Below the pieces are notes generated by a model, which was given only the letters and a program-made list of their open reading frames with translations, was not told where the DNA came from and ran no database searches. From a phage: a stretch of DNA of 64,000 nt. A program made the translations under genes and the position numbers. Every line of letters begins with the position of its first letter. Within the stretch, counting starts at the first letter, position 1. The stretch lies in sequence record PQ724392.1; one strand, written 5' to 3'. Below are positions 3,353 through 52,132 of this stretch, piece after piece.

Positions 3353-3360
3353 TATAAATA
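3353..3360 (+). promoter_or_regulatory. late promoter (TATAAATA) for genes 34-35
   Basis: exact TATAAATA ~30 nt upstream of the gene 34 ATG. Confidence 0.65.
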
Positions 3361-3391: not shown

Positions 3392-6300
3392 ATGGCCGAT
3401 ATTTTAAAACCAGCATTCAGAGCAACATCCGGTCTCGATGCTGCTGGTGAGAAAGTCATTAATGTCGCAAAAGCTGATTACTCAGTTTTATCAGACGGCG
3501 TTAACGTAGGTTTCTTTATAGAAGAAAACACAGTTCAACAATATGATGCAACACGCGGATACAAAAAGAACTTTGCAGTTATTAATGATAACCGTATTTG
3601 GGTTGCTCAACGTGATATTCCGGCACCAGCTGGAGCATTTACCCCTCAGTATTGGTTAGCAACTCGTACTGACCCTAAATGGGAAACTGTTGCATCTCCA
3701 ACTCGTCAGCTTAGCTCCGGGGAATTTATCGCAGTCGACTCAGCTGCAAGCTTTACCACATTTACCTTACCTCCGAACCCGACTGATGGTGATACCATCG
3801 TTATTAAAGATATCGGCGGTAATACCGGTTATAATGAAATTAAAATCCAGTCAAGCAACGTGCCTGGTCAAGGTAACCAAAAGATTGTTCGCTTTGGTAA
3901 TCAGTATTCAGAAGTTTTAATTACCAAACCATTCTCTTATAACATGCTTATCTTTTCAAACCGCTTATGGCAATTTTGGGAAGCAGGTAACGAAGAACGT
4001 GGTATCAGAGTAGAACCGTCGACCGGACGTTTCCATGCACAAGCTGGCGACTTTATTATGCGTCGTTATACAACTGGTGCACCGATTACTTTCATTCTTC
4101 CTAAGTATGCAAACCAGGGTGATATTGTCAAATCTGTTGATATCGATGGCATGGGGCCAACGTTCCACCTGATGGTTGAAACCTTTGACACCAGTTCCAG
4201 TCTTGGGAAAGCTGGCCAGCATCAAATGGAATTCCGTACCACAGGTGATGGTTTCTTCGTTTATAATGCTACCGAAAAACTCTGGTATGTTTGGGACGGT
4301 GATTTTAAAACTCGTCTTCGCGTTATTCGCGACAGCGTTAAACTTTTACCAAACGAAAGTGTCATTGTATTTGGCGAAGATAACTCAACTCCGGCAACGA
4401 TTAATATCGATTTGCCAACTAATGTTTTGCAAGGCGATATTGTTAAGATTGCGCTGAACTATCTCCGTAAATCGCAGACTGTTAATATAAGAGCTGCTGT
4501 TGGCGATAAGATTGCAACTGACATTAAATTGCTGCAATTCCCTAAACGTTCCGAGTATCCACCAGATACAACTTGGGTGATGGTTGATTCATTGACCTTT
4601 AATGGCAACATCAGTTATACTCCGGTTATTGAATTATCATATGCAGAAGATGCAGTGTCTGGAACAAGTTATTGGGTTGTCGCTCAGAACGTCCCGACTG
4701 TCGAACGAGTTGACTCATTAAATGATTCCACGCGTACACGTCTTGGTGTTATTGCTCTGGCAAACCAGACTCAGGCAAACGTTGACCATGAAAATAACCC
4801 AGAAAAAGAACTCGCAATTACCCCTCAGACTTTAGCCAACCGTGTTGCTAAAGAGAACCAACGAGGCATTGCCAGAATCGCAACGACTGCCCAAGTAAAT
4901 CAGAACAGTGATTTTGCATTTGTTGATGATGTAATTATTTCTCCGAAAAAACTCAATGAACGTACGGCAACAGAAACGAGACGTGGACTCGCAGAACTCG
5001 CCACACAGCAAGAAACCAATGCGGGTGTAGATGATACCACAATTATAACTCCAAAGAAACTGCAAGCTCGCCAGGGCTCAGAATCGCTATCTGGTATTGT
5101 AACTTACGTTTCAACGACTGGTGCAACTCCTGCTGCTTCGCGTGAATTAAATGGTACAAACGTTTATAATAAAAATACGGTTAATCTGGTTGTTTCTCCG
5201 AAAGCTCTTGACCAGTACAAAGCTACTTACACTCAGCAAGGCGCGGTTATTCTTGCGGTTGAAAGTGAAGTAATCGCTGGTACTTCACAATCTGGCTGGG
5301 CAAACGCAGTCGTTACTCCAGAAATGTTGCATCGCAAAACTGCTCTTGATTCCCGTATCGGTTTAATCGAGATTGCTACTCAGGTTGAAACAGATGCAGG
5401 AACCGATTATACCAGAGCTGTGACTCCTAAAACGTTAAATGACCGTAAAGCATCAGAAACGTTAACCGGCATAGCCGAGATTGCTACGCAATCAGAATTT
5501 GATACTGGAACTGATGATACTCGTATCTCAACTCCATTAAAAATTAAAAATAGATTTAATAATACTGCTCGTACTTCTGTTAATGCATTAAGTGGTTTAG
5601 TAGAAACAGGGACGCTCTGGGACCATTATAGCCTGAATATTCTTGAAGCAAATGAGACTCAACGTGGCACAGCAAGATTAGCAACTCAGGGTGAAGTCAA
5701 TACTGGCACTGACGATAAAACAATCGTTACTCCGCTTAAATTGATGTCGAAAAAAGCCACTGAAAACGCCGAAGGTATTGTTCGCATTGCGACAAACGCA
5801 GAAGCAACAGCAGGCACATCAAAAGTCTTGGCCATTAGTCCGTCTGCGCTGAAATATATTGTCCAAACAGAAACAACTTGGGAAGCATCTGAAACACTGC
5901 GTGGATTTGTTCGTTTATCTTCCGGTGCAGCTACTTCGGCCGCAACTACAACGACGGGCGCGGGATTTACATATGCAAATGGTGTGTATACCCCGGACCC
6001 AAGTAAACTGGTTAGCTATGCGAAATCTGGATATGCAGTTTCGCCTTACGAATTAAACCGCGTATTGCAAAACTTCTTACCAATAAATGCGATGGCTGTT
6101 AATGCTGAAAAACTGGATAACCTCGATTCAACCCAGTTTATTCGTCGTGATATTGCTCAGACTGTTGAAGGTGTATTAACCCTTACTAAGCAGACAAATA
6201 TCTCTGCTCCGGTTGTATCGACGAGCACTGCGGTGTTTACTGATGTAACGGCTGGTACTTCGACGTTCGGAACTGTGAATGTTGTTAATGGAACTAACAA

Positions 6301-7348
6301 GTGGAAAATCACTGCTCCTTCCACCGGAACGACAATGACTATTGGTGATACGACTAACGTATTGACATTAAACACCGCCTCGGGTAATGCTGCTGTATTG
6401 AACAACCTCAGCGCCGGAAACGATGTTCAAGCCAAAAATAATTACGTTCTAAATGGTCGTACTATTGCAACTACAACGGGCGAAGCTTCTGGTGCAACTT
6501 TGTCTCTGGGTGATAACTCACAGAATTTAGTGCTCAAAACTCTTGATGCTGGCAATATCATAGCAAATGGTGGCGGTGCATTTAAAGTTCTGACCGAGAA
6601 AAACGCAGTAGAAATTGTTGATAGAAACTTTGTTAACCAGGCTGGTGATACAATGTCTGGTGTACTCCGTGTAAATGCTCCGGTCCGTGTATTTGGTACA
6701 AAACCGAGTCTTATTGCACAAGCTCCGACTGCTGATACTGTTGGCTTCTGGTCTGTCGATATCAATGATGAACCGACTTATAGCCAGTTCCCTGGTTATT
6801 GGACAATGAAGTTAAAACGTCAGGTAAACATTGATACGGTTCAAACTAAACCTGCTGGGGTAACTGATGAAGTTTGGAATGCTTCTGGTTGGTTAACTGA
6901 AAACGGAACTTTTGCCTCGCCCGCTATTCGTTATCGTACTGATGATGGTACACTCGGTGATGAAGTATTAGGTAGCTCCGGACAGAAACTGCGCGGAACC
7001 TGGTTTGACTATTCAGTTCGCGACAAACAAATTAAATATCCTGGTACATTGACTCAGTTTGGTAATACGCTGGATTCGTGCTATCAAGATTGGGTTTGTT
7101 ACCCAACTGAATTGAACGGTGGTACTATTCGTTATACTCGTACGTGGCAGAAAAATAAATCTGCATGGACGACTTTCGCAATGGTTTACACCGCGGATAA
7201 CCCTCCGTCTGCAGAGGATGTTGGCGCATTACCGGCTGACAACACAACGATGGGGAACTTAACCATTCTTGATTGGTTGCGTATCGGTAACGTGCGTATC
7301 ATCCCAGACCCGACCACTAAATCCGTTAAGTTTGAATGGATTGAATAA
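3392..7348 (+). CDS. 34: long tail fibre proximal subunit gp34
   Basis: 1318-aa ORF on plus strand, first gene of the 34-38 fibre operon; internal ~30-aa repeats (ATQ.E.N.GTDDT.I.TPK.L) typical of T-even fibre shafts; late promoter TATAAATA upstream. Confidence 0.9.
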   Translation: MADILKPAFRATSGLDAAGEKVINVAKADYSVLSDGVNVGFFIEENTVQQYDATRGYKKNFAVINDNRIWVAQRDIPAPAGAFTPQYWLATRTDPKWETVASPTRQLSSGEFIAVDSAASFTTFTLPPNPTDGDTIVIKDIGGNTGYNEIKIQSSNVPGQGNQKIVRFGNQYSEVLITKPFSYNMLIFSNRLWQFWEAGNEERGIRVEPSTGRFHAQAGDFIMRRYTTGAPITFILPKYANQGDIVKSVDIDGMGPTFHLMVETFDTSSSLGKAGQHQMEFRTTGDGFFVYNATEKLWYVWDGDFKTRLRVIRDSVKLLPNESVIVFGEDNSTPATINIDLPTNVLQGDIVKIALNYLRKSQTVNIRAAVGDKIATDIKLLQFPKRSEYPPDTTWVMVDSLTFNGNISYTPVIELSYAEDAVSGTSYWVVAQNVPTVERVDSLNDSTRTRLGVIALANQTQANVDHENNPEKELAITPQTLANRVAKENQRGIARIATTAQVNQNSDFAFVDDVIISPKKLNERTATETRRGLAELATQQETNAGVDDTTIITPKKLQARQGSESLSGIVTYVSTTGATPAASRELNGTNVYNKNTVNLVVSPKALDQYKATYTQQGAVILAVESEVIAGTSQSGWANAVVTPEMLHRKTALDSRIGLIEIATQVETDAGTDYTRAVTPKTLNDRKASETLTGIAEIATQSEFDTGTDDTRISTPLKIKNRFNNTARTSVNALSGLVETGTLWDHYSLNILEANETQRGTARLATQGEVNTGTDDKTIVTPLKLMSKKATENAEGIVRIATNAEATAGTSKVLAISPSALKYIVQTETTWEASETLRGFVRLSSGAATSAATTTTGAGFTYANGVYTPDPSKLVSYAKSGYAVSPYELNRVLQNFLPINAMAVNAEKLDNLDSTQFIRRDIAQTVEGVLTLTKQTNISAPVVSTSTAVFTDVTAGTSTFGTVNVVNGTNKWKITAPSTGTTMTIGDTTNVLTLNTASGNAAVLNNLSAGNDVQAKNNYVLNGRTIATTTGEASGATLSLGDNSQNLVLKTLDAGNIIANGGGAFKVLTEKNAVEIVDRNFVNQAGDTMSGVLRVNAPVRVFGTKPSLIAQAPTADTVGFWSVDINDEPTYSQFPGYWTMKLKRQVNIDTVQTKPAGVTDEVWNASGWLTENGTFASPAIRYRTDDGTLGDEVLGSSGQKLRGTWFDYSVRDKQIKYPGTLTQFGNTLDSCYQDWVCYPTELNGGTIRYTRTWQKNKSAWTTFAMVYTADNPPSAEDVGALPADNTTMGNLTILDWLRIGNVRIIPDPTTKSVKFEWIE
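4810..5930 (+). repeat. coding repeats within gp34 (about nine degenerate ~30-aa units)
   Basis: recurring peptide pattern G.A..ATQ.E.NAGTDDT.I.TPKKL in the translated ORF; boundaries approximate. Confidence 0.5.
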
Positions 7349-7356
7349 GAGGTAAT

Positions 7357-8487
7357 ATGGAAAAATTTATGGCAGAGTTTGGACAAGGATACGTCCAAAC
7401 GCCAGTTATATCAGAAAATAATGCCGTTAAATTTAAAATGAGTATAGCAGGGAGCTGTACTCTTTCCACGGTGAAATCGTATATCAAATTTCAGGATGAA
7501 CGAATTGGACCAACTACTTTTGGCAATGGTCTGACTCTATTGGAAATTGATACAACTACGAATAAAATTGTTAACACGAAAAACTATTCATTAACTAGCA
7601 CACATGATGCAATCAGTCAGGCATTAATCACCTTTGTGGAATCTGTTCCAGCCGGAAGATTGATTGCTTTTATTTCTTCAGGGAAACTAAACGCATCACA
7701 GACATTAATTGATTGGTTCCGTAAATGTGGTTCAAGAGCATTCCCAGATAAATGGCTGATTGATAAAGTTGATACATCGTACTCGGCTTTTTACATAACC
7801 GGCCGGAATGTAATTGTTTCGGAGCATGTTAAGTATAATGACGGGAAGTTAGTTGAGGATGTTTCGACTCCGCTTGAAGTCATTTATGATACCTTTAGTG
7901 ATATAGGAGCAACAGGCTATCCTGTACGCATAACGGAAGACGAGAGCACGTATTCATCAACAGGTGATGGAACATCAACCACAATTAAAAGGTTCCCCAC
8001 AGAGGACCTGGTGACCCCTATGAGCACCTATAACCTTTTACCTTTGGATGTGCTTTACTTGAAGTTTCAGATGTCATTTGACGCAGCACTGAAAGCCGCC
8101 GGAACTGTAAGGACCTCGGTTCGATTCTTTAAAAGCCCCAGCACTTCGCCGATATCAAATACAAACATCGATATTGCAGCAAACGTTCCAGCCGGAGCGT
8201 GGGCGAGTTTCGAAAGATATGTCGAGATTCCAGCAGGAGCTGATGGCTTTACGGTAGTAACATCAAGAACTGTAGCTACTGGAACAGGGTCAATACGTAA
8301 TATTGTTATTGGTGAGATAACCAGAGGCGACTCGGCATTCAAACCAGCTGAATTTGGTGTCAATGGCATAAGGATGTCATATGCAAACGATGCAACAAAT
8401 ACAGGCAATACAATTGTAACATTCCCGGATGCGCAAGCTCCGAGAGCCGGCAAGATATATGCAGCCGAACTACGAGAAAAACAATAG
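7357..8487 (+). CDS. 35: long tail fibre hinge (knee) protein gp35
   Basis: 376-aa ORF beginning MEKFMAEFGQGYVQTP as in recalled T4 gp35; position 34-35-36. Confidence 0.9.
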   Translation: MEKFMAEFGQGYVQTPVISENNAVKFKMSIAGSCTLSTVKSYIKFQDERIGPTTFGNGLTLLEIDTTTNKIVNTKNYSLTSTHDAISQALITFVESVPAGRLIAFISSGKLNASQTLIDWFRKCGSRAFPDKWLIDKVDTSYSAFYITGRNVIVSEHVKYNDGKLVEDVSTPLEVIYDTFSDIGATGYPVRITEDESTYSSTGDGTSTTIKRFPTEDLVTPMSTYNLLPLDVLYLKFQMSFDAALKAAGTVRTSVRFFKSPSTSPISNTNIDIAANVPAGAWASFERYVEIPAGADGFTVVTSRTVATGTGSIRNIVIGEITRGDSAFKPAEFGVNGIRMSYANDATNTGNTIVTFPDAQAPRAGKIYAAELREKQ

Positions 8488-8509
8488 GACTCTTCGGAGT
8501 CCTTTTTTC
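8487..8509 (+). terminator. rho-independent terminator after gene 35
   Basis: GGACTC-TTCG-GAGTCC followed by TTTTTT. Confidence 0.7.
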
Positions 8510-8511
8510 GT

Positions 8512-8519
8512 TATAAATA
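8512..8519 (+). promoter_or_regulatory. late promoter (TATAAATA) for genes 36-37-38
   Basis: exact TATAAATA ~35 nt upstream of the gene 36 ATG, right after the terminator. Confidence 0.65.
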
Positions 8520-8554
8520 CAAAATATCATATGCCGGTTGAAGAGGACTTATAA

Positions 8555-9202
8555 ATGGCAGATTTAAAACTAGGCTCAACAGCCGGGGGTTCGGTCCTCT
8601 GGCACCAGGGTAATTTCCCATTAACACCAGTCAGTAATGACTTATATTTCAAAACTTATAAAATTTATTCCGAATATAACAAGCCACAAGCAGTCGATAA
8701 CGATTTTGTTTCTAAAGCTCTTGGTGGTAATTATAAAGCAAATGTATATTTCGAACAGGGCCTGACATTTAACGATTCAAATGGTTACGGGATTAAGTTG
8801 GGAGCGAGAACGGGCGGTGCTCCATTTACCGCATCTTTCCGTATTAAAGGACCATTTGGATTTGAAACTGAAACAGCAACCCCATTTGTTATTTTTGACC
8901 CTGACACTACGCCAGGAGCAAAACGTCTCATTGTTATGGGTGATACGTTAGCTCGTCAAGTTTATGATGAAACAGGTCGTGTATTTTCTCCAGGGAATAC
9001 TCCGTCAAAAGCTCAAGTTGGTCTTGGTAATGTAACTAACCAGCAACAGGTAGAACTAAATAATAGTACATTGCAAACAATGACAGGTAACTTGTCGGCA
9101 CCTAATTTCTTCTCTAGGAACCCAGCATCAGACCCGGCCCATGTGCCTCGTTTTGACCAAATCGTTCTTAAAGACTCCGTACAAGATTTTGGATATTATT
9201 AA
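8555..9202 (+). CDS. 36: long tail fibre distal connector gp36
   Basis: 215-aa ORF; MADLKLGST.GGSV.WHQGNFPL.. and C-terminal ..APNFFS.NPAS.P.HVPRFDQIV.KDSVQDFGYY match recalled T4 gp36. Confidence 0.85.
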   Translation: MADLKLGSTAGGSVLWHQGNFPLTPVSNDLYFKTYKIYSEYNKPQAVDNDFVSKALGGNYKANVYFEQGLTFNDSNGYGIKLGARTGGAPFTASFRIKGPFGFETETATPFVIFDPDTTPGAKRLIVMGDTLARQVYDETGRVFSPGNTPSKAQVGLGNVTNQQQVELNNSTLQTMTGNLSAPNFFSRNPASDPAHVPRFDQIVLKDSVQDFGYY

Positions 9203-9210
9203 GAGGCATT

Positions 9211-12200
9211 ATGGCTACTTTAAAACAAATACAATTTAAAAGAAGTAAGGTTGCCGGCGTTCGTCCGGCGCCAACAGTTCTTGCTGAAGGTGAACTGGCT
9301 ATCAACCTGAAAGACCGCTTACTTTTTACTAAAGATGACACCGGCGCCATTATCGACCTTGGTTTTGCCAAAGGCGGTAATATTGATGGTAATGTTATTC
9401 ATAACGGTAATTACAATCAAACTGGTGATTATACTCTTAACGGTGTATTTACTCAAATTGGTGATTTCAATCTCAATGGCATTGCTCGTGTAACTCGTGA
9501 TATTATTGCGGCAGGTCAGATAATGACCCACGGTGGTGAACTTATTTCTAAGAGTGCCTCAACTTCTCACCTTCGTTTCTTTGATGGCAATGACCGTGAA
9601 CGTGGCATTATCTTTTCTCCTAATAATGCAGGGGCAACCAACCAAGTAGTTAATATTCGTGTACAAGATTATTCTACCGCAAGCGAAAGCACTTATGCAT
9701 TTTCAGGCGCCGGTGTATTTTCTTCTCCTGTAGTTTTTGGATGGAAATCTGTATCAACTCCCGTAATTTATACTAATAAAGTTATTACAAATGGTAAAGT
9801 TGCCGGCGATTATGATATCTATTCATTGGCCGATAATACCCCATTGGCAGAAAGTGAAACAGCTATTAACCATCTCCGTGTTATGCGAAATGCTGTAGGC
9901 GCGGGTATATTTCACGAAGTTAAAGATAATGACGGAATAACCTGGTATGCTGGAGATGGATTGGACGCTTATCTTTGGTCATTTACATGGTCAGGTGGAT
10001 TGAAAGCCGGTCATTCTATTTCCGTAGGCACCCCAGGTAACTCTAAAGGATATTCTGAATTAGGAAATGCTTCAATTGCTCTTGGCGATAATGACACCGG
10101 GCTAAAATGGCATCAGGATGGATATTTCCATACAGTAAACAACGGCACGAGAACTTTCCTGTACAGCCCAGCAGAAACCACCAGTCTTAGAAAAATGGTT
10201 ATGGGGTATTCTACTAACGGAACCGATTTAACTACTCCTCCTACTGAAAACTATGCTCTTGCTACTGTTGTTACTTACCATGATAATAACGCGTACGGTG
10301 ACGGTCAAACTCTTTTAGGGTATTATCAAGGCGGTAATTATCACCACTATTTCCGTGGTAAGGGCACTACAAACGTTAACACCGCTGGCGGTTTGTTAGT
10401 TACGCCTGGTAATATAGATGTTGTTGGTGGTTCGGTTAATATTGATGGTAGAAATAATGCTTCTACGCTGATGTTTAGAGGTAACACAACTGGTAGTAGT
10501 TCAGTTGATAATATGACTATCAGCGTTTGGGGTAATACCTTTACTACTGTCGATGGCGACCGTAAAAACGTAATGGAAATATCTGATGCCACCAGCTGGA
10601 TGCATTATATTCAGCGTAAGACTGATAATACCGTTGAGGCCGTATTAAATGGACAACAAACTATTAACGAAAATCTTGTTGTCAAAAAAGATATTTTAGT
10701 TGATAAGGCGGTCCACACCGCCGGCGAAATTACTACAAGTGCCGTTAATGGGCTCCGCATCTGGAACAACGATTATGGAGCCATTTTTAGACGCTCAGAA
10801 GGCAGTCTTCATATTATTCCTACTGCATTCGGTGAAGGCATGTCCGGCGATATTGGTCCACTTCGCCCGTTTAGCATGGCTTTAGATACTGGTAAAGTCA
10901 CTATTCCAGATTTACAATCAAGTTACAATACGTTCGCAGCAAACGGTTATATTAAATTTACTGGTCACGGAGCAGGCGCCGGCGGTTATGATATTCAATA
11001 TGCACAAGCAGCTCCTATTTTCCAAGAAATTGATGATGCAGCAGTAAGTAAATATTATCCTATTGTTAAGCAGAAATTCTTACAAGGAAAAGCTGTTTGG
11101 TCTTTAGGTACTGAAATTAATTCCGGGACTTTTGTTTTACACCATCTTAAAGAAGACGGGACCGGAGGTCATACCTCAAGATTTAATGCTGATGGTACAG
11201 TTAACTTCCCCGATAACGTGCAGGTTGGTGGTGGTGAAGCTACTATTGCTCGAAACGGTAATATCTGGTCCGATATTTGGAAAACGTTTACTTCAGCAGG
11301 CGATGTAACTAATATTCGCGATGCTATTGCCTCCCGTGTGGCCAAAGAAGGTGATACGATGACCGGCCGCTTAACTCTTAATGCAAACTCGGATGCTATT
11401 GTTATTAACAGTGCTGCAACCGAATCTGGTTATGTGAAAGGACAAAAAGCTGGTGTTGATAACTGGTATGTAGGCAATGGCGGCGCTGATAACGCCCTAT
11501 CGTTTTATAGTTTCCGAACTAATTCAGGCGTTAATATTCATAATAGTGGGGAAATTGCTTTAGCTCCTCAAGGGTCGGATACTTTTTATTTTAATAGGGA
11601 CCGTCTTTATATAAAGGGTTCACAATGGGCCGCACACCAGGCTGGCGATTGGGGAAACCAATGGAAGCAAGAAGCCCCTGTGTTTGTAGATTTTGGTAAT
11701 GTTGGTAATGATAGTTATTATCCGATTATCAAAGGAAAATCTGGTATTACTAACGAAGGATACGTATCCGGTGTAGATTTTGGTATGCGCCGCATCACAA
11801 ATACATGGGCGCAAGGTATTATTCGTGTAGGTAACCAGGAAAACGGTTCTGACCCGCAAGCTATCTATGAATTCCACTCTAATGGTACTTTTTATGCTCC
11901 GAGCTTACTTAAGAGCAACAGAGTATCGGCTGGCGGTGGTGACCCTGTATGGGGTGGACCGTGTATCGTTATAGGTGATAACGATACCGGTTTGCTCTGG
12001 GAAGCGGACGGTATTTTCAACGCATATGCAAATGGTCAAGGGGTGTTTAGTTTTAGAGCCGGACTTGCCCAGACATTTGGTAACGTTAACTTACACTGTA
12101 ATGCGGGTATGTATGTTCGTGATAACATTGATGTTAACGACGTTTATATTCGTTCTGATATTCGTTGTAAGTCGGAAATTAAGCTTATTAAGAATGCTCA

Positions 12201-12471
12201 AGAGAAATCTAAACTCTTAGGTGGTTATACTTATCTGCTTAAAAACTCTGTCACAGATGAAGTTAAACCGTCTGCCGGTTTAATTGCTCAGGAAGTTCAA
12301 GAAGTATTGCCTGAACTTGTGACTGAAGATAAAGAGACTGGCTTACTTCGTTTAAACTATAACGGTATTATCGGTTTAAATACTGCTACTATCAACGAGC
12401 ATACTGATGAAATCAAGGAATTGAAATCTGAAATTGCTGAGTTGAAAGCATTAATTAAATCATTATTATAA
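9211..12471 (+). CDS. 37: long tail fibre distal subunit gp37 with C-terminal intramolecular chaperone (peptidase S74-like) domain
   Basis: 1086-aa ORF; N-terminus [32 protein letters not shown] matches recalled T4 gp37; C-terminus [12 protein letters not shown]...[15 protein letters not shown]...LNYNGIIGL resembles the autoproteolytic chaperone domain of endosialidase-type fibres. Confidence 0.9.
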
Positions 12472-12474
12472 GAA

Positions 12475-12490
12475 AGGGCCTTCGGGCCCT
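12475..12490 (+). promoter_or_regulatory. UUCG-tetraloop hairpin in the 29-nt 37-38 intergenic spacer
   Basis: AGGGCC-TTCG-GGCCCT immediately followed by GGAGG (SD of gene 38) and TTTTT. Confidence 0.5.
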
Positions 12491-12500
12491 GGAGGTTTTT

Positions 12501-13280
12501 ATGGCAGTAGTAGGAATTCCTGGCTGGATTGGGACATCAGCAGTGGCTGAAACAGGTCAACGTTGGATGACAGCAGCTTCTAGAGAATTGCGTCTTGGTA
12601 ACCCATCTTGGATGTCGCAATTTGCTGGTCGGTCCCGTGAGATTATTCACACACTTGGAGCTGACCATAACTTTAATGGACAATGGTTCCGCGACCGTTG
12701 TTTTGAAGCCGGCGGTGCTCCTATAGTGTTTAATATCACAGGCAACTTAGTATCATATACTAAAGATGTTCCGTTGTTCTTTATGTACGGTGATACCCCT
12801 AACGAATATGTTACTTTGAATATTCATGGTGGTGTTCATATGTGGGGCCGAGGTGGCAACGGTACAGTAAATGGAAGCCCAGGCACTAATGGTGGTGACG
12901 TAATCCAAAATGATATTGGTGGACGACTTCGCATTTGGAATTATGGTGTGATAGCCTCCGGTGGTGGTGGCGGCGGTGCCGCATCATTACAGAATAGTTG
13001 GCCTGCAAATGCTACAGCAGGTGGCGGTGGCGGCAGACCATTTGGTCTCGGCGGCGGTGGTGTTAATTGGCCAGGCGGCAATGCTAGTTATGATGGTCCA
13101 GGTGGCGGTGGTAATGCAAACCAATTTGGCGGTGGCAATGGCGGTGATGCTGGTGGCGCTGGTGGCGCTGGATGGGGTAATAACTTATCCAGGTCGGGTG
13201 GTGGTGCTCCTGGTAGAGCAGTATTCGGTTCCTCCCCATCATGGGGCGCGACAGGCACTATCTACGGCTCATGGTTATAG
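12501..13280 (+). CDS. 38: tail fibre adhesin gp38 (T2-type, glycine-rich motifs)
   Basis: 259-aa ORF immediately after gp37; conserved N-terminal half followed by runs of GGGGG separated by short variable segments, as in T2-type gp38 adhesins. Confidence 0.8.
12957..13215 (+). repeat. glycine-rich motif repeats in gp38 (GGN-codon tracts)
   Basis: at least six runs of ggtggcggtgg-type sequence encoding GGGG(G) blocks separated by short variable segments. Confidence 0.7.
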
Positions 13281-13291
13281 TACATAAGCAT

Positions 13292-13299
13292 TATAAATA
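13292..13299 (+). promoter_or_regulatory. late promoter (TATAAATA) for holin t
   Basis: exact TATAAATA ~18 nt upstream of the t ATG. Confidence 0.65.
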
Positions 13300-13317
13300 T
13301 CTTTAAAGGAGAAAAGT

Positions 13318-13971
13318 ATGGAACCAAAAGTAGGAATATCAATACCCGACCTACTTTTTGGACTTCTTGATAGAATTTTTAAAGATAATGCGACCGGGAA
13401 AGTTGTTTTTTCCCGGGTACTAGTTATTGTTCTATTATTTTTAATGGCGGTAATCTGGTATAAAGGTGATGCAATTTTAGATGCGTACAGGGATGCTTCA
13501 TACGCCTCGTACACTGAAATGATAAGGCAAGACCAGGATAACAGATTTAAAATTGCAGCTATCGAGCAAATCCAGATAGTCCACTCGTCAAGTGGGGCAG
13601 ACTTTACAGCAATATATTCTTTTAGACCAACTAACCTTAACTACTTCGTGGATATGGTGGGATACGAGGGGATATTACCTGATACAGTCGATGAAAAAAA
13701 CTTGGGTGGGTTTCCAATAGATAAGACTTCAGCGGAATATTTGGCGGGGGTTAATGGTAATTATTTCGAATCCAGTACGGAATCTGTATTCTTACCAACA
13801 AAGAAAAAAAGCAGCTTTACATATATGTTCAGCTGCCCATTCTTTAATTTGGAAAACGTTTATGCAGGCACAGTCTCACTGTACTGGTATAAGCAAAAAC
13901 CCGACCTTGGTTTTGATAGGCTTTCTTCTATGTGTGGACAAGCAGGTCGTACGCTTGGGCGTACACGTTAG
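13318..13971 (+). CDS. t: holin T
   Basis: 217-aa ORF; DLLFGLLDRIFKDNATGKV, single N-terminal TM segment and FSCPFFNLENVYAGT.SLYWY match recalled T4 holin (218 aa); late promoter TATAAATA ~20 nt upstream. Confidence 0.9.
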   Translation: MEPKVGISIPDLLFGLLDRIFKDNATGKVVFSRVLVIVLLFLMAVIWYKGDAILDAYRDASYASYTEMIRQDQDNRFKIAAIEQIQIVHSSSGADFTAIYSFRPTNLNYFVDMVGYEGILPDTVDEKNLGGFPIDKTSAEYLAGVNGNYFESSTESVFLPTKKKSSFTYMFSCPFFNLENVYAGTVSLYWYKQKPDLGFDRLSSMCGQAGRTLGRTR

Positions 13972-17040: not shown

Positions 17041-17068
17041 TAAAATAAAAAGGACCCCGAAGGGTCCT
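17041..17068 (-). terminator. rho-independent terminator after gene 52 and its trailing small ORF
   Basis: minus strand GGACCC-TTCG-GGGTCC followed by TTTTTATTTT. Confidence 0.7.
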
Positions 17069-26465: not shown

Positions 26466-26494
26466 TAATAAAAAAGGACCCGAAGGTCCTTTTG
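26466..26494 (-). terminator. rho-independent terminator (palindromic, could act on both strands)
   Basis: AGGACC-CGAA-GGTCCT with A-run upstream and T-run downstream. Confidence 0.6.
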
Positions 26495-28570: not shown

Positions 28571-28590
28571 AAAAGGCCCGAAGGCCTTTT
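28571..28590 (-). terminator. terminator-like tetraloop hairpin
   Basis: AAAAGGCC-CGAA-GGCCTTTT palindrome overlapping the stop codon of ORF 28589-28990. Confidence 0.55.
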
Positions 28591-38360: not shown

Positions 38361-38388
38361 AAGCAAAAAGGGAACCCGAAGGTTCCCT
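38361..38388 (-). terminator. rho-independent terminator after soc
   Basis: minus strand GGGAACC-TTCG-GGTTCCC followed by TTTTTGCTTTT. Confidence 0.7.
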
Positions 38389-50150: not shown

Positions 50151-50172
50151 CAAAAGGGACCGAAGTCCCTTT
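50151..50172 (-). terminator. rho-independent terminator after regA
   Basis: minus strand GGGAC-TTCG-GTCCC followed by TTTTG; TATAAT follows. Confidence 0.6.
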
Positions 50173-52114: not shown

Positions 52115-52132
52115 ATGGGGCCGAAGCCCCAT
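52115..52132 (-). promoter_or_regulatory. tetraloop hairpin in the 45-44 intergenic region
   Basis: ATGGGGC-CGAA-GCCCCAT; no U-tract; possible RNA processing/stability or translational-operator context. Confidence 0.4.

Follow-up and report, generated by a model that had tools for sequence, protein, structure and literature searches.

Genes 37 and 38 of the phage in sequence record PQ724392.1, which lie on the + strand of the 64,000-nucleotide stretch analysed here (hereafter the window), very probably encode the distal tip of the long tail fibre of a T2-type T-even coliphage, in which gp38 serves as the adhesin. Of the features that define such a tip module, all those open to testing in silico were found. 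The initial annotation, made from the letters alone, had described positions 9211–13280 as a host-range module of gp37 with a C-terminal intramolecular-chaperone domain followed by a glycine-rich gp38 adhesin, and the open reading frame check shows that gene 37 begins and gene 38 ends at exactly these coordinates. The architecture itself is already known, having been defined by crystal structures of the phage S16 and PP01 proteins, and both the cleavage of the chaperone domain and the docking of gp38 have been published. The features of gp37 on which the assignment rests are as follows (aa, amino acids).

9211–12471, + strand: gene 37, long tail fibre distal subunit, 1086 aa (open reading frame, Pfam, identity to JS98).
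12139–12153, + strand: DVYIR, aa 977–981, predicted last beta-strand of mature gp37 and docking surface for gp38 (alignment).
12154–12468, + strand: intramolecular chaperone/autoproteolysis domain, aa 982–1086, with a putative Ser982/Lys987 dyad (Pfam, S16, motif).

The likeness that the initial annotation saw between the gp37 C-terminus and the self-cleaving chaperone domains of endosialidase-type fibres is borne out by profile and structure searches, and the motifs that it quoted are present. The Peptidase_S74 profile (PF13884, ‘chaperone of endosialidase’) matches aa 982–1038 over its full length (positions 1–58 of 58), with 45.8 bits against a cut-off of 22 (E=7.5e-12). Residues 915–1085 align with the S16 gp37 construct that was crystallised with gp38 (PDB 6F45_A; E=1e-29), which places SDIRCK, beginning at aa 982, opposite SDRRIK of S16; aa 915–981, which precede the chaperone domain, are homologous to the beta-helical tip of S16 gp37, and further upstream aa 446–554 match Pfam Gp34_trimer. 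When the last 127 residues were used as the query, S16 gp37 was again recovered (E=2.4e-23) and the sole other match among solved structures was a weak one to MYRF (7DC3, E=0.027); a phmmer search from the gp37 C-terminus gave no direct match to the endosialidase chaperone structures. With the endosialidase-type and MYRF ICA domains, the gp37 domain nevertheless shares the hidden Markov model match, a Ser-x4-Lys at the start of the domain and a position C-terminal to a trimeric fibre, although the MYRF ICA chain 7DC3 (ADLRAK) has an alanine opposite Ser982 and a lysine aligned with the lysine.

Ser982 stands at the scissile position with Lys987 five residues downstream, as in a Ser–Lys dyad, and the motif V-Y-x-R-S-D-x-R-x-K is invariant in nine gp37 proteins, viz. 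those of the window, T2, T6, RB69, JS98, Bas47, FL33, fPS-2 and pEC-M719-6WT.2. In S16, gp37 cleaves itself at DLNVS^SDRRIKK (^ marks the cleaved bond) and gp38 docks afterwards, while the fPS phages have a predicted site DVYIR^SDGRLKI (PMC7917993); the gp37 proteins of T2 and T6 are likewise proteolytically processed (PMC3157838). Cleavage of the window gp37 is predicted at DVYIR(981)^S(982)DIRCK(987), which would release 105 aa from the extreme end of the 1086-residue protein. Thus the residue before the cleaved bond would be Arg in the window and is Ser in S16, and the shafts that precede the two tips have no sequence relation to each other. On these comparisons the chaperone domain is correctly identified, whereas the cleavage itself is something that we infer.

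The second half of the module is gene 38, whose parts are given below; the boundaries of loops A–E follow the definitions published for PP01 gp38 (PMC12892980).

12501–13280, + strand: gene 38, T2-type tail-fibre tip adhesin, 259 aa (Pfam, matches to PP01 and S16, GenBank identity).
12501–12626, + strand: N-terminal attachment domain of gp38, aa 1–42, with Trp9, Trp22 and Trp37 (Gp38_N).
12846–13238, + strand: glycine-rich motif (GRM)/hypervariable segment (HVS) region, aa 116–246, predicted polyglycine-II sandwich with receptor loops (alignment to PP01).
12864–12881 (loop A), 12987–13016 (loop B), 13056–13070 (loop C), 13113–13127 (loop D) and 13170–13190 (loop E), + strand: gp38 loops (alignment to PP01 9V85).

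The protein matches the Pfam profiles GP38 (E=2.3e-81, 273.2 bits) and Gp38_N (E=8.8e-21, 74.1 bits), each with a cut-off of 25. Its best match among solved structures is the receptor-binding domain of PP01 gp38 (9V85; E=2.5e-73, aa 39–257), and it also matches S16 gp38 over aa 8–259 (6F45_D; E=1.6e-50), so that the solved adhesin fold, a beta-helix followed by a polyglycine-II sandwich, is in all likelihood shared across the whole receptor-binding domain. The description of gp38 as a T2-type adhesin in which GGGG blocks alternate with short variable segments was therefore accurate. Glycine makes up 26% of the whole protein and 37% of aa 110–259, and six runs of at least three glycines fall within aa 154–235 (GGGGGG 154–159, GGGGG 174–178, GGGG 184–187, GGGG 201–204, GGG 210–212 and GGG 233–235), separated by short non-glycine stretches; in the alignment the glycine columns are invariant and the columns in between are variable. 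The GRM/HVS design of gp38 adhesins has been published (PMC3157838) and corresponds structurally to a polyglycine-II sandwich with distal loops (PMC6851490, PMC12892980). At the other end of the protein, Trp9, Trp22 and Trp37 are invariant among 10 aligned adhesins, and in S16 gp38 three such tryptophans plug as prongs into pockets of the gp37 tip (PMC6851490).

The closest structurally characterised system is accordingly the gp37–gp38 tip of S16 (PDB 6F45; Dunne et al. 2018), with which the window shares the gp37 tip and autocleaving chaperone with its S-D-x-R-x-K motif, as well as the Trp-prong attachment domain, beta-helix, polyglycine-II sandwich and five distal loops of gp38. The loops themselves differ, and S16 binds OmpC of Salmonella, whereas the window adhesin groups with OmpF binders. 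Onto PP01 gp38 (9V85; PMC12892980), which shares the beta-helix and the polyglycine-II sandwich, the loop A–E framework can be mapped directly, but PP01 has OmpC of O157 as its receptor, and in loops B, D and E it differs in sequence and length. As for the allele, the window gp38 is 100% identical to the GenBank protein of phage pEC-M719-6WT.2 and 98.5% identical to gp38 of NC-G, both Dhakavirus-type phages that share this adhesin and diverge from the window in the gp37 segment 11311–11910.

The receptor of this adhesin is most likely OmpF, a call in which we place reasonable but by no means high confidence, and some dependence on the lipopolysaccharide (LPS) core probably accompanies it. OmpF is the best guess because the specificity domain (aa 116–259) is 89–91% identical to that of four adhesins from OmpF-dependent phages, i.e. 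Bas47/AlbertHofmann (91.0%), RB69 (90.3%), fPS-2 (90.3%) and FL33 (88.9%), as against 74% for JS98, 58% for T2 and 53% for T6. Bas47 was shown, with complementation, to depend on OmpF (PMC8594841); RB69 and RB51 require FhuA and the LPS core in addition to OmpF (PMC3157838); fPS-2 and fPS-90 require OmpF plus LPS (PMC7917993); and FL31, FL33 and FL34 are OmpF-dependent, in a study in which Gp38 phylogeny predicts the receptor (PMC12032242). With these OmpF binders (Bas47, RB69/RB51, FL33/FL31, fPS-2/fPS-90) the window adhesin shares the same glycine blocks, the same loop C and the 259-aa length.

Several points weigh against reading the module as that of an OmpF-dependent T2-type phage. Cleavage, gp38 attachment and the receptor are all predicted from homology. 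There are 13–16 substitutions between the window adhesin and those of the OmpF binders, most of which fall within loops A, B, D and E or next to them. Relative to Bas47, with 13 differences (window residue first, relative’s residue last), these include S126N in loop A; P168A and A169P in loop B, with A161V adjacent; N205Y, A206T and N207S in loop D, with G203A adjacent; and N228H in loop E, with A223D and A220W (A220W/R across the relatives) nearby. Positions at which the OmpF binders carry Tyr, Arg/Trp, Asp and His are thus Asn, Ala, Ala and Asn in the window. Changes of only one or two loop residues are known to switch receptors, as between SV76 and T2 or between PST and T6 (PMC3157838), and no receptor data were found for the identical or 98.5% identical adhesins of pEC-M719-6WT.2 and NC-G. 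The adhesin therefore clusters with those of OmpF-dependent phages, but its receptor loops are not identical to those of the characterised OmpF binders, and since they differ, membership of the OmpF clade is probable rather than established. It is these loop substitutions, together with the known cases of receptor switching, that keep us from putting OmpF any higher.

The same substitutions argue for a different reading, to which we give a smaller but still considerable share of belief, namely that the receptor is something other than OmpF of strain K-12, be it a different porin, e.g. OmpC, some OmpF allele carried by wild E. coli, or OmpF in combination with FhuA or LPS. Loops D and E, where N205Y, A206T, N207S, A223D, N228H and the change at position 220 lie or cluster, are those with which PP01 directly contacts OmpC (PMC12892980), the changes in loops A and B add to them, the T2/SV76 and T6/PST pairs show how few residues suffice, and it was on wild strains, M719-6WT and NC101, that the phages with the identical or near-identical adhesins were isolated. 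The loop D/E variant common to the window phage, pEC-M719-6WT.2 and NC-G may thus mark a specificity distinct from K-12 OmpF. What holds this reading below OmpF is that four independent OmpF-dependent phages share the 89–91% identity, with loop C identical and loop B almost wholly so, while T6 (Tsx) and T2 (FadL/OmpF) are far more distant and the loop region of PP01 (OmpC) diverges. Aligning the variable loops with those of known adhesins, which the initial annotation had proposed as a route to the receptor, does then yield a prediction, OmpF, and places the adhesin far from those of T2 and T6, but the substitutions within the loops leave the call insecure.

Between the two genes lies a spacer of 29 nucleotides (nt), at 12472–12500, which holds two features directly upstream of the adhesin gene.

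12475–12490, + strand: hairpin of the C(UUCG)G type, AGGGCC-UUCG-GGCCCU, with 6 base pairs (bp), beginning 3 nt beyond the stop codon of gene 37 and adjoining the Shine-Dalgarno (SD) sequence of gene 38.
12491–12495, + strand: gene 38 SD sequence GGAGG, 5 nt before the ATG (read from sequence).

Both the length of the spacer and the presence of a UUCG hairpin directly before the gene 38 SD, as given in the initial annotation, agree with the sequence, the hairpin being followed by GGAGG (12491–12495), TTTTT and the ATG at 12501. The hairpin belongs to the T-even class of intercistronic C(UUCG)G hairpins, members of which are said to have been first described in T4, by Tuerk et al. in 1988. Hairpins with a TTCG loop and a stem of at least 6 bp number 12 in the 64-kb window, compared with 1.8 ± 1.2 in dinucleotide shuffles. 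Examples are found at 8486–8503, 17051–17068, 26472–26493, 28571–28590, 38369–38388 and 50153–50172; several precede T-runs and are terminator-like, and others, including the one between genes 37 and 38, do not. A second hairpin followed by GGAG, at 52132–52115, was considered as a parallel and set aside, as the layout of hairpin, SD and ATG is not shared.

A G+C-rich hairpin is present at the gene 37–38 junction in 25 of the 25 loci examined from T-even phages proper, with stems that differ; a DNA pattern for the start of gene 38 supplied 3 of the loci compared and a metagenome scan 12 more. It is kept in T2, T4, T6, RB69, JS98, Bas47, FL33, fPS-2 and the metagenome loci, and pEC-M719-6WT.2 and NC-G have the same hairpin and spacer as the window. 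The stem AGGGCC/GGCCCU is found in the window and in Bas47, and in JS98 with a CUCG loop; RB69 and one further locus (L012) have AGGGGC/GCCCCU, T2 has GAGGGC/GCCCUC, T6 and fPS-2 have AAGGGGC-UUU-GCCCCUU and FL33 has AAGGGGG-AAAUG-CCCCCUU. Because alignments of the spacer by MAFFT put the differing stems out of register, seven distinct 18-nt hairpins were anchored by hand on the loop for the analysis of covariation, FL33 (with its 5-nt loop) and locus L022 being left out. In this alignment (n=7) 94% of cells pair, four of the seven pairs are changed on both sides, and the covariation score is 0.374 where shuffles give 0.184 ± 0.060 (reached in 1 of 500), collapsing when the partners are slid against each other. 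Since few sequences were aligned and the alignment was itself guided by the structure, this is indicative rather than proof that the hairpin has been selected as a structure and conserved through compensatory changes.

Two observations stand in the way of assigning a function to the hairpin. Folded with its surroundings (66 nt), it shows no significant gain in stability over shuffles (z = -1.29). Moreover, two distant phages with gp38 adhesins (42–53% identity), seen on the IMG/VR contigs L010 (1431–1506) and L011 (1140–1215), have no intergenic hairpin, the gene 37 stop codon abutting the start of gene 38; the hairpin would thus be selected within the T-even group proper and not be intrinsic to the gp37/gp38 system. 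An IMG/VR scan with a protein pattern based on the gp38 alignment gave only 5 distant loci, being swamped by the glycine pattern IA[SG]GGGGG. A search of Rfam at E<=1 over 8300–13600 gave no match.

What the hairpin does is best approached through its surroundings. A permissive consensus scan for terminators flags 12475–12490 on both strands, but on the + strand a canonical rho-independent terminator was rejected, as GGAGG follows the stem and the run of five U starts 6 nt on; the hairpin at the end of gene 35 (8486–8503), by comparison, has T6 directly after its stem. On the minus strand T-rich sequence comes after the hairpin in the window, Bas47 and T2, while hairpins of the T6/fPS-2 type lack this T-run and the UUCG loop reads on the + strand, so that a minus-strand terminator can be entertained only as a remote option. 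Only in the TTTTTATG variants does folding predict a longer A-U helix, one in which the AUG would be sequestered and the SD bulged out; as this helix is not conserved, it was dropped. An mRNA-stability or structural-insulator element beside an exposed SD, rather than a terminator, appears to be the most likely role.

The comparison with T4 is instructive here. T4 (locus L030, NC_000866, 7615–7652, set against 12469–12503 of the window) has a near-identical hairpin, GAGGGGC-UUCG-GCCCUUC, at its gene 37–38 junction, although its gene 38 is unrelated, and T2 has GAGGGC-UUCG-GCCCUC at the same junction. The SD, however, is on the 5' side of the hairpin in T4 and on the 3' side in the window, T2, T6, RB69 and JS98. 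In T4 the gene 38 initiation region is split, and the hairpin cuts a gap of 22 nt between SD and AUG to 5 nt (PMC3014915). The split SD–AUG arrangement of T4 genes 38 and 25 is not found in the window, where the SD at 12491–12495 stands 5 nt from the ATG; with the SD 3' of the hairpin at normal spacing, the T4 mechanism cannot apply.

These results bear on the suggestion in the initial annotation that the hairpin sets the ratio of gp37 to gp38. That the hairpin is real and under selection is supported, whereas the role in setting the ratio is not; the hairpin does not sequester the SD, and the + strand has no U-run directly after the stem. In favour of an attenuator or translational tuner that fixes the 3:1 ratio of gp37 to gp38 are the compensatory conservation of the hairpin at precisely this junction in all T-even-proper relatives examined, and its end, always 0–3 nt before the SD; the T4 equivalent, too, is experimentally required for efficient translation of gene 38 (PMC3014915). 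Yet the late U-run removes a canonical intrinsic terminator, the GGAGG is strong and lies outside the stem at a normal 5-nt spacing, where the hairpin neither occludes nor bridges it, distant phages with gp38 adhesins do without the hairpin and no Rfam family matches it, and we hold this explanation to be quite unlikely. On a bolder reading, the hairpin may be a selected RNA element that was kept at one site across the swap of unrelated gene 38 types, the chaperone of T4 and the adhesin of T2; in phages of the adhesin type, with the SD moved to its 3' side, it might tune the output of gp38 or stabilise the 36–37 message, aiding the 3:1 stoichiometry.

The glycine codons of gene 38 raise the question of how such adhesins vary. 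The GGN tracts at 12957–13215 were described in the initial annotation as near-repeats at the DNA level and as likely substrates for recombination or slippage that alters host range. Two features of gene 38 are relevant.

13149–13171, + strand: the sole exact tandem repeat in gene 38, GCTGGTGGC, 9 nt x 2.6, encoding AGGAGGAG (repeat search).
12653–12701, + strand: inferred recombination junction in gene 38, JS98-like to the left and pEC-M719/NC-G-like to the right (difference maps).

Near-repeats do exist, as families of 19–23 nt at 70–84% identity, but they do not exceed the level that coding imposes. In 2000 synonymous-codon shuffles that kept the protein and the codon pool of the gene, the longest exact repeat was 12.2 ± 1.5 nt, compared with 14 nt in the window (P=0.18), 9-mer pairs numbered 16.7 ± 8.3, compared with 20 (P=0.30), and for shared 12-mers P was 0.12; the repetition of the tracts at the DNA level does not go beyond what protein sequence and codon usage dictate. 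The tracts as main substrates of recombination or slippage in the creation of new host ranges are a published idea, that of GRM-mediated modular shuffling (Tetart 1998, at least as it is cited in PMC3157838), the 9-nt tandem at 13149–13171 could slip in frame, and indels between relatives adjoin glycine blocks. We nevertheless regard this explanation as distinctly improbable for the window: repetition is within the expectation from synonymous shuffles (P=0.18–0.30), with a longest exact repeat of only 14 nt; the sole mapped junction, at 12653–12701, lies outside the tracts; exchange between GRM1 and GRM5 was seen in 0 of 14 experimental chimeras (Trojet et al., PMC3157838); and the window adhesin differs from its closest relatives by point substitutions, not block swaps. 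The claim that the tracts serve as such substrates is accordingly not supported.

The mapped junction can be placed with some precision. From 12534 to 12652 there are zero differences from JS98 and many, almost all synonymous, from pEC-M719, whereas the remainder of gene 38, from 12702 on, differs from pEC-M719 at 6 positions and from JS98 densely. The junction falls within the most conserved stretch of the gene, coding for the beta-helix, with the long GGN tracts about 250 nt further downstream, and as such fits the view that exchange prefers conserved flanks. Over 12524–12701 there are 24 nucleotide differences from pEC-M719-6WT.2 with an identical protein, almost all at third-codon positions; the one adjacent pair among them, 12635–12636, likewise encodes the same residue. 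This stretch reads as a recombination patch under strong purifying selection.

Gene 37 shows a similar pattern on the other side. Its segment 11311–11910 is 97–100% identical to JS98 and 52–63% identical to pEC-M719 and NC-G, while the 3' half of gene 38 is 97–100% identical to pEC-M719 and 66–77% identical to JS98. Between these two variable parts lies a conserved block from about 12100 to about 12650, comprising the chaperone domain, the spacer with its hairpin and the N-terminus of gp38. The distal shaft of gp37 (11311–12100, aa ~700–960) is a patchwork, with a breakpoint near 12100, just upstream of the chaperone domain. The window thus presents a new mosaic of known gp37 segments, joined to an adhesin allele for which entries from two other phages already exist.

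In a T4-type arrangement, gp38 would merely be an assembly chaperone and the gp37 C-terminus would bind the receptor. Such a reading has in its favour the gene order shared with T4 and the ‘assembly catalyst’ or ‘chaperone’ labels of several GenBank homologues, but is refuted at the sequence level and can be put aside as most improbable, given that gp38 has no similarity to T4 gp38 (best BLASTP E=1.0) and matches solved adhesins instead, and that T4 gp37 is alignable only to aa 1–645 (34% identity) and lacks the chaperone domain. Many homologues in GenBank are still labelled ‘distal long tail fiber assembly catalyst’, ‘long tail fiber assembly chaperone’ or ‘hypothetical protein’; these labels give the function of T4 gp38 or none, not that of an adhesin.

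The module is embedded in a tail-fibre cluster of T-even type, with the order 34-35-36-37-38-t. Open reading frames and Pfam matches place gene 34 at 3392–7348, gene 35 at 7357–8487, gene 36 at 8555–9202 and the holin gene t at 13318–13971, the product of the last matching Phage_holin_T with E=8.7e-67. The backbone is about 97% identical to coliphages EAWsc9 and pEC-M719-6WT.2, with CJ20 and DK-13 also among the close matches, and the 37–38 segment has 88% nucleotide identity to JS98, the type of Dhakavirus; the window phage is a JS98-like (Dhakavirus-type) coliphage. The following signals flank the module.

8486–8509, + strand: terminator-like UUCG hairpin (8486–8503) with T6, overlapping the end of gene 35 (AGGACTC-TTCG-GAGTCCT, then TTTTTT).
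8512–8519, + strand: T4-type late promoter motif TATAAATA before gene 36 (motif scan and sequence).
13292–13299, + strand: late promoter motif TATAAATA before the holin gene t, at the downstream boundary of the module (motif scan).

The scan located the motif TATAAATA at 3353, 8512 and 13292. As the interval between the last two holds no further copy, genes 36, 37 and 38 are predicted to be co-transcribed and gene 38 to be read from that late transcript. The hairpin with T6 at 8486–8509 is the upstream boundary of this unit. Across 8486–8519 the hairpin and T6 are followed 3 nt on by TATAAATA, a terminator–promoter pair that parts the cluster into 34-35 and 36-37-38. The GenBank record of fPS-2 is annotated with the same layout, i.e. 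terminator, late promoter, genes 36–38, late promoter and gene t. Further upstream, aa 57–128 of the hinge connector gp35 (gene at 7357–8487) match Pfam ILEI (PF15711; 30.4 bits against a gathering threshold of 27, E=5.7e-07), the interleukin-like EMT (epithelial–mesenchymal transition) inducer, a surprising domain label for the hinge of a phage fibre.

Taken with what is known from S16 and PP01, a plausible course of events can be sketched. Genes 36, 37 and 38 would be transcribed late from the TATAAATA motif at 8512. After translation, gp37 would trimerise, its last 105 residues (aa 982–1086) nucleating the trimeric beta-helix as an intramolecular chaperone, which by homology to S16 gp37 and the Peptidase_S74 family would then cleave itself between Arg981 and Ser982 by means of the Ser982/Lys987 dyad. 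One gp38 monomer would cap the DVYIR tip so exposed, its N-terminal helical bundle putting Trp9, Trp22 and Trp37 into three symmetric pockets of gp37, as in S16. In the C-terminal half of gp38 the glycine blocks would fold into a polyglycine-II sandwich that displays five short variable loops, and these would bind the outer-membrane protein. Host range would shift mainly by point substitutions in the loops, together with the exchange of whole specificity domains through crossovers in conserved flanks, of which the junction at 12653–12701 would be one visible case.

Two bolder readings, to which we give a rather low probability, are that the junction hairpin is a selected RNA element kept through the swap of gene 38, and that the loop D/E variant confers a distinct specificity. 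The comparison of the hairpin with that of T4 is in itself a small evolutionary curiosity. The practical value of the finding is in annotation and in the prediction of host range, in that the phage can be labelled as one of the gp38-adhesin type, with OmpF as its probable receptor.

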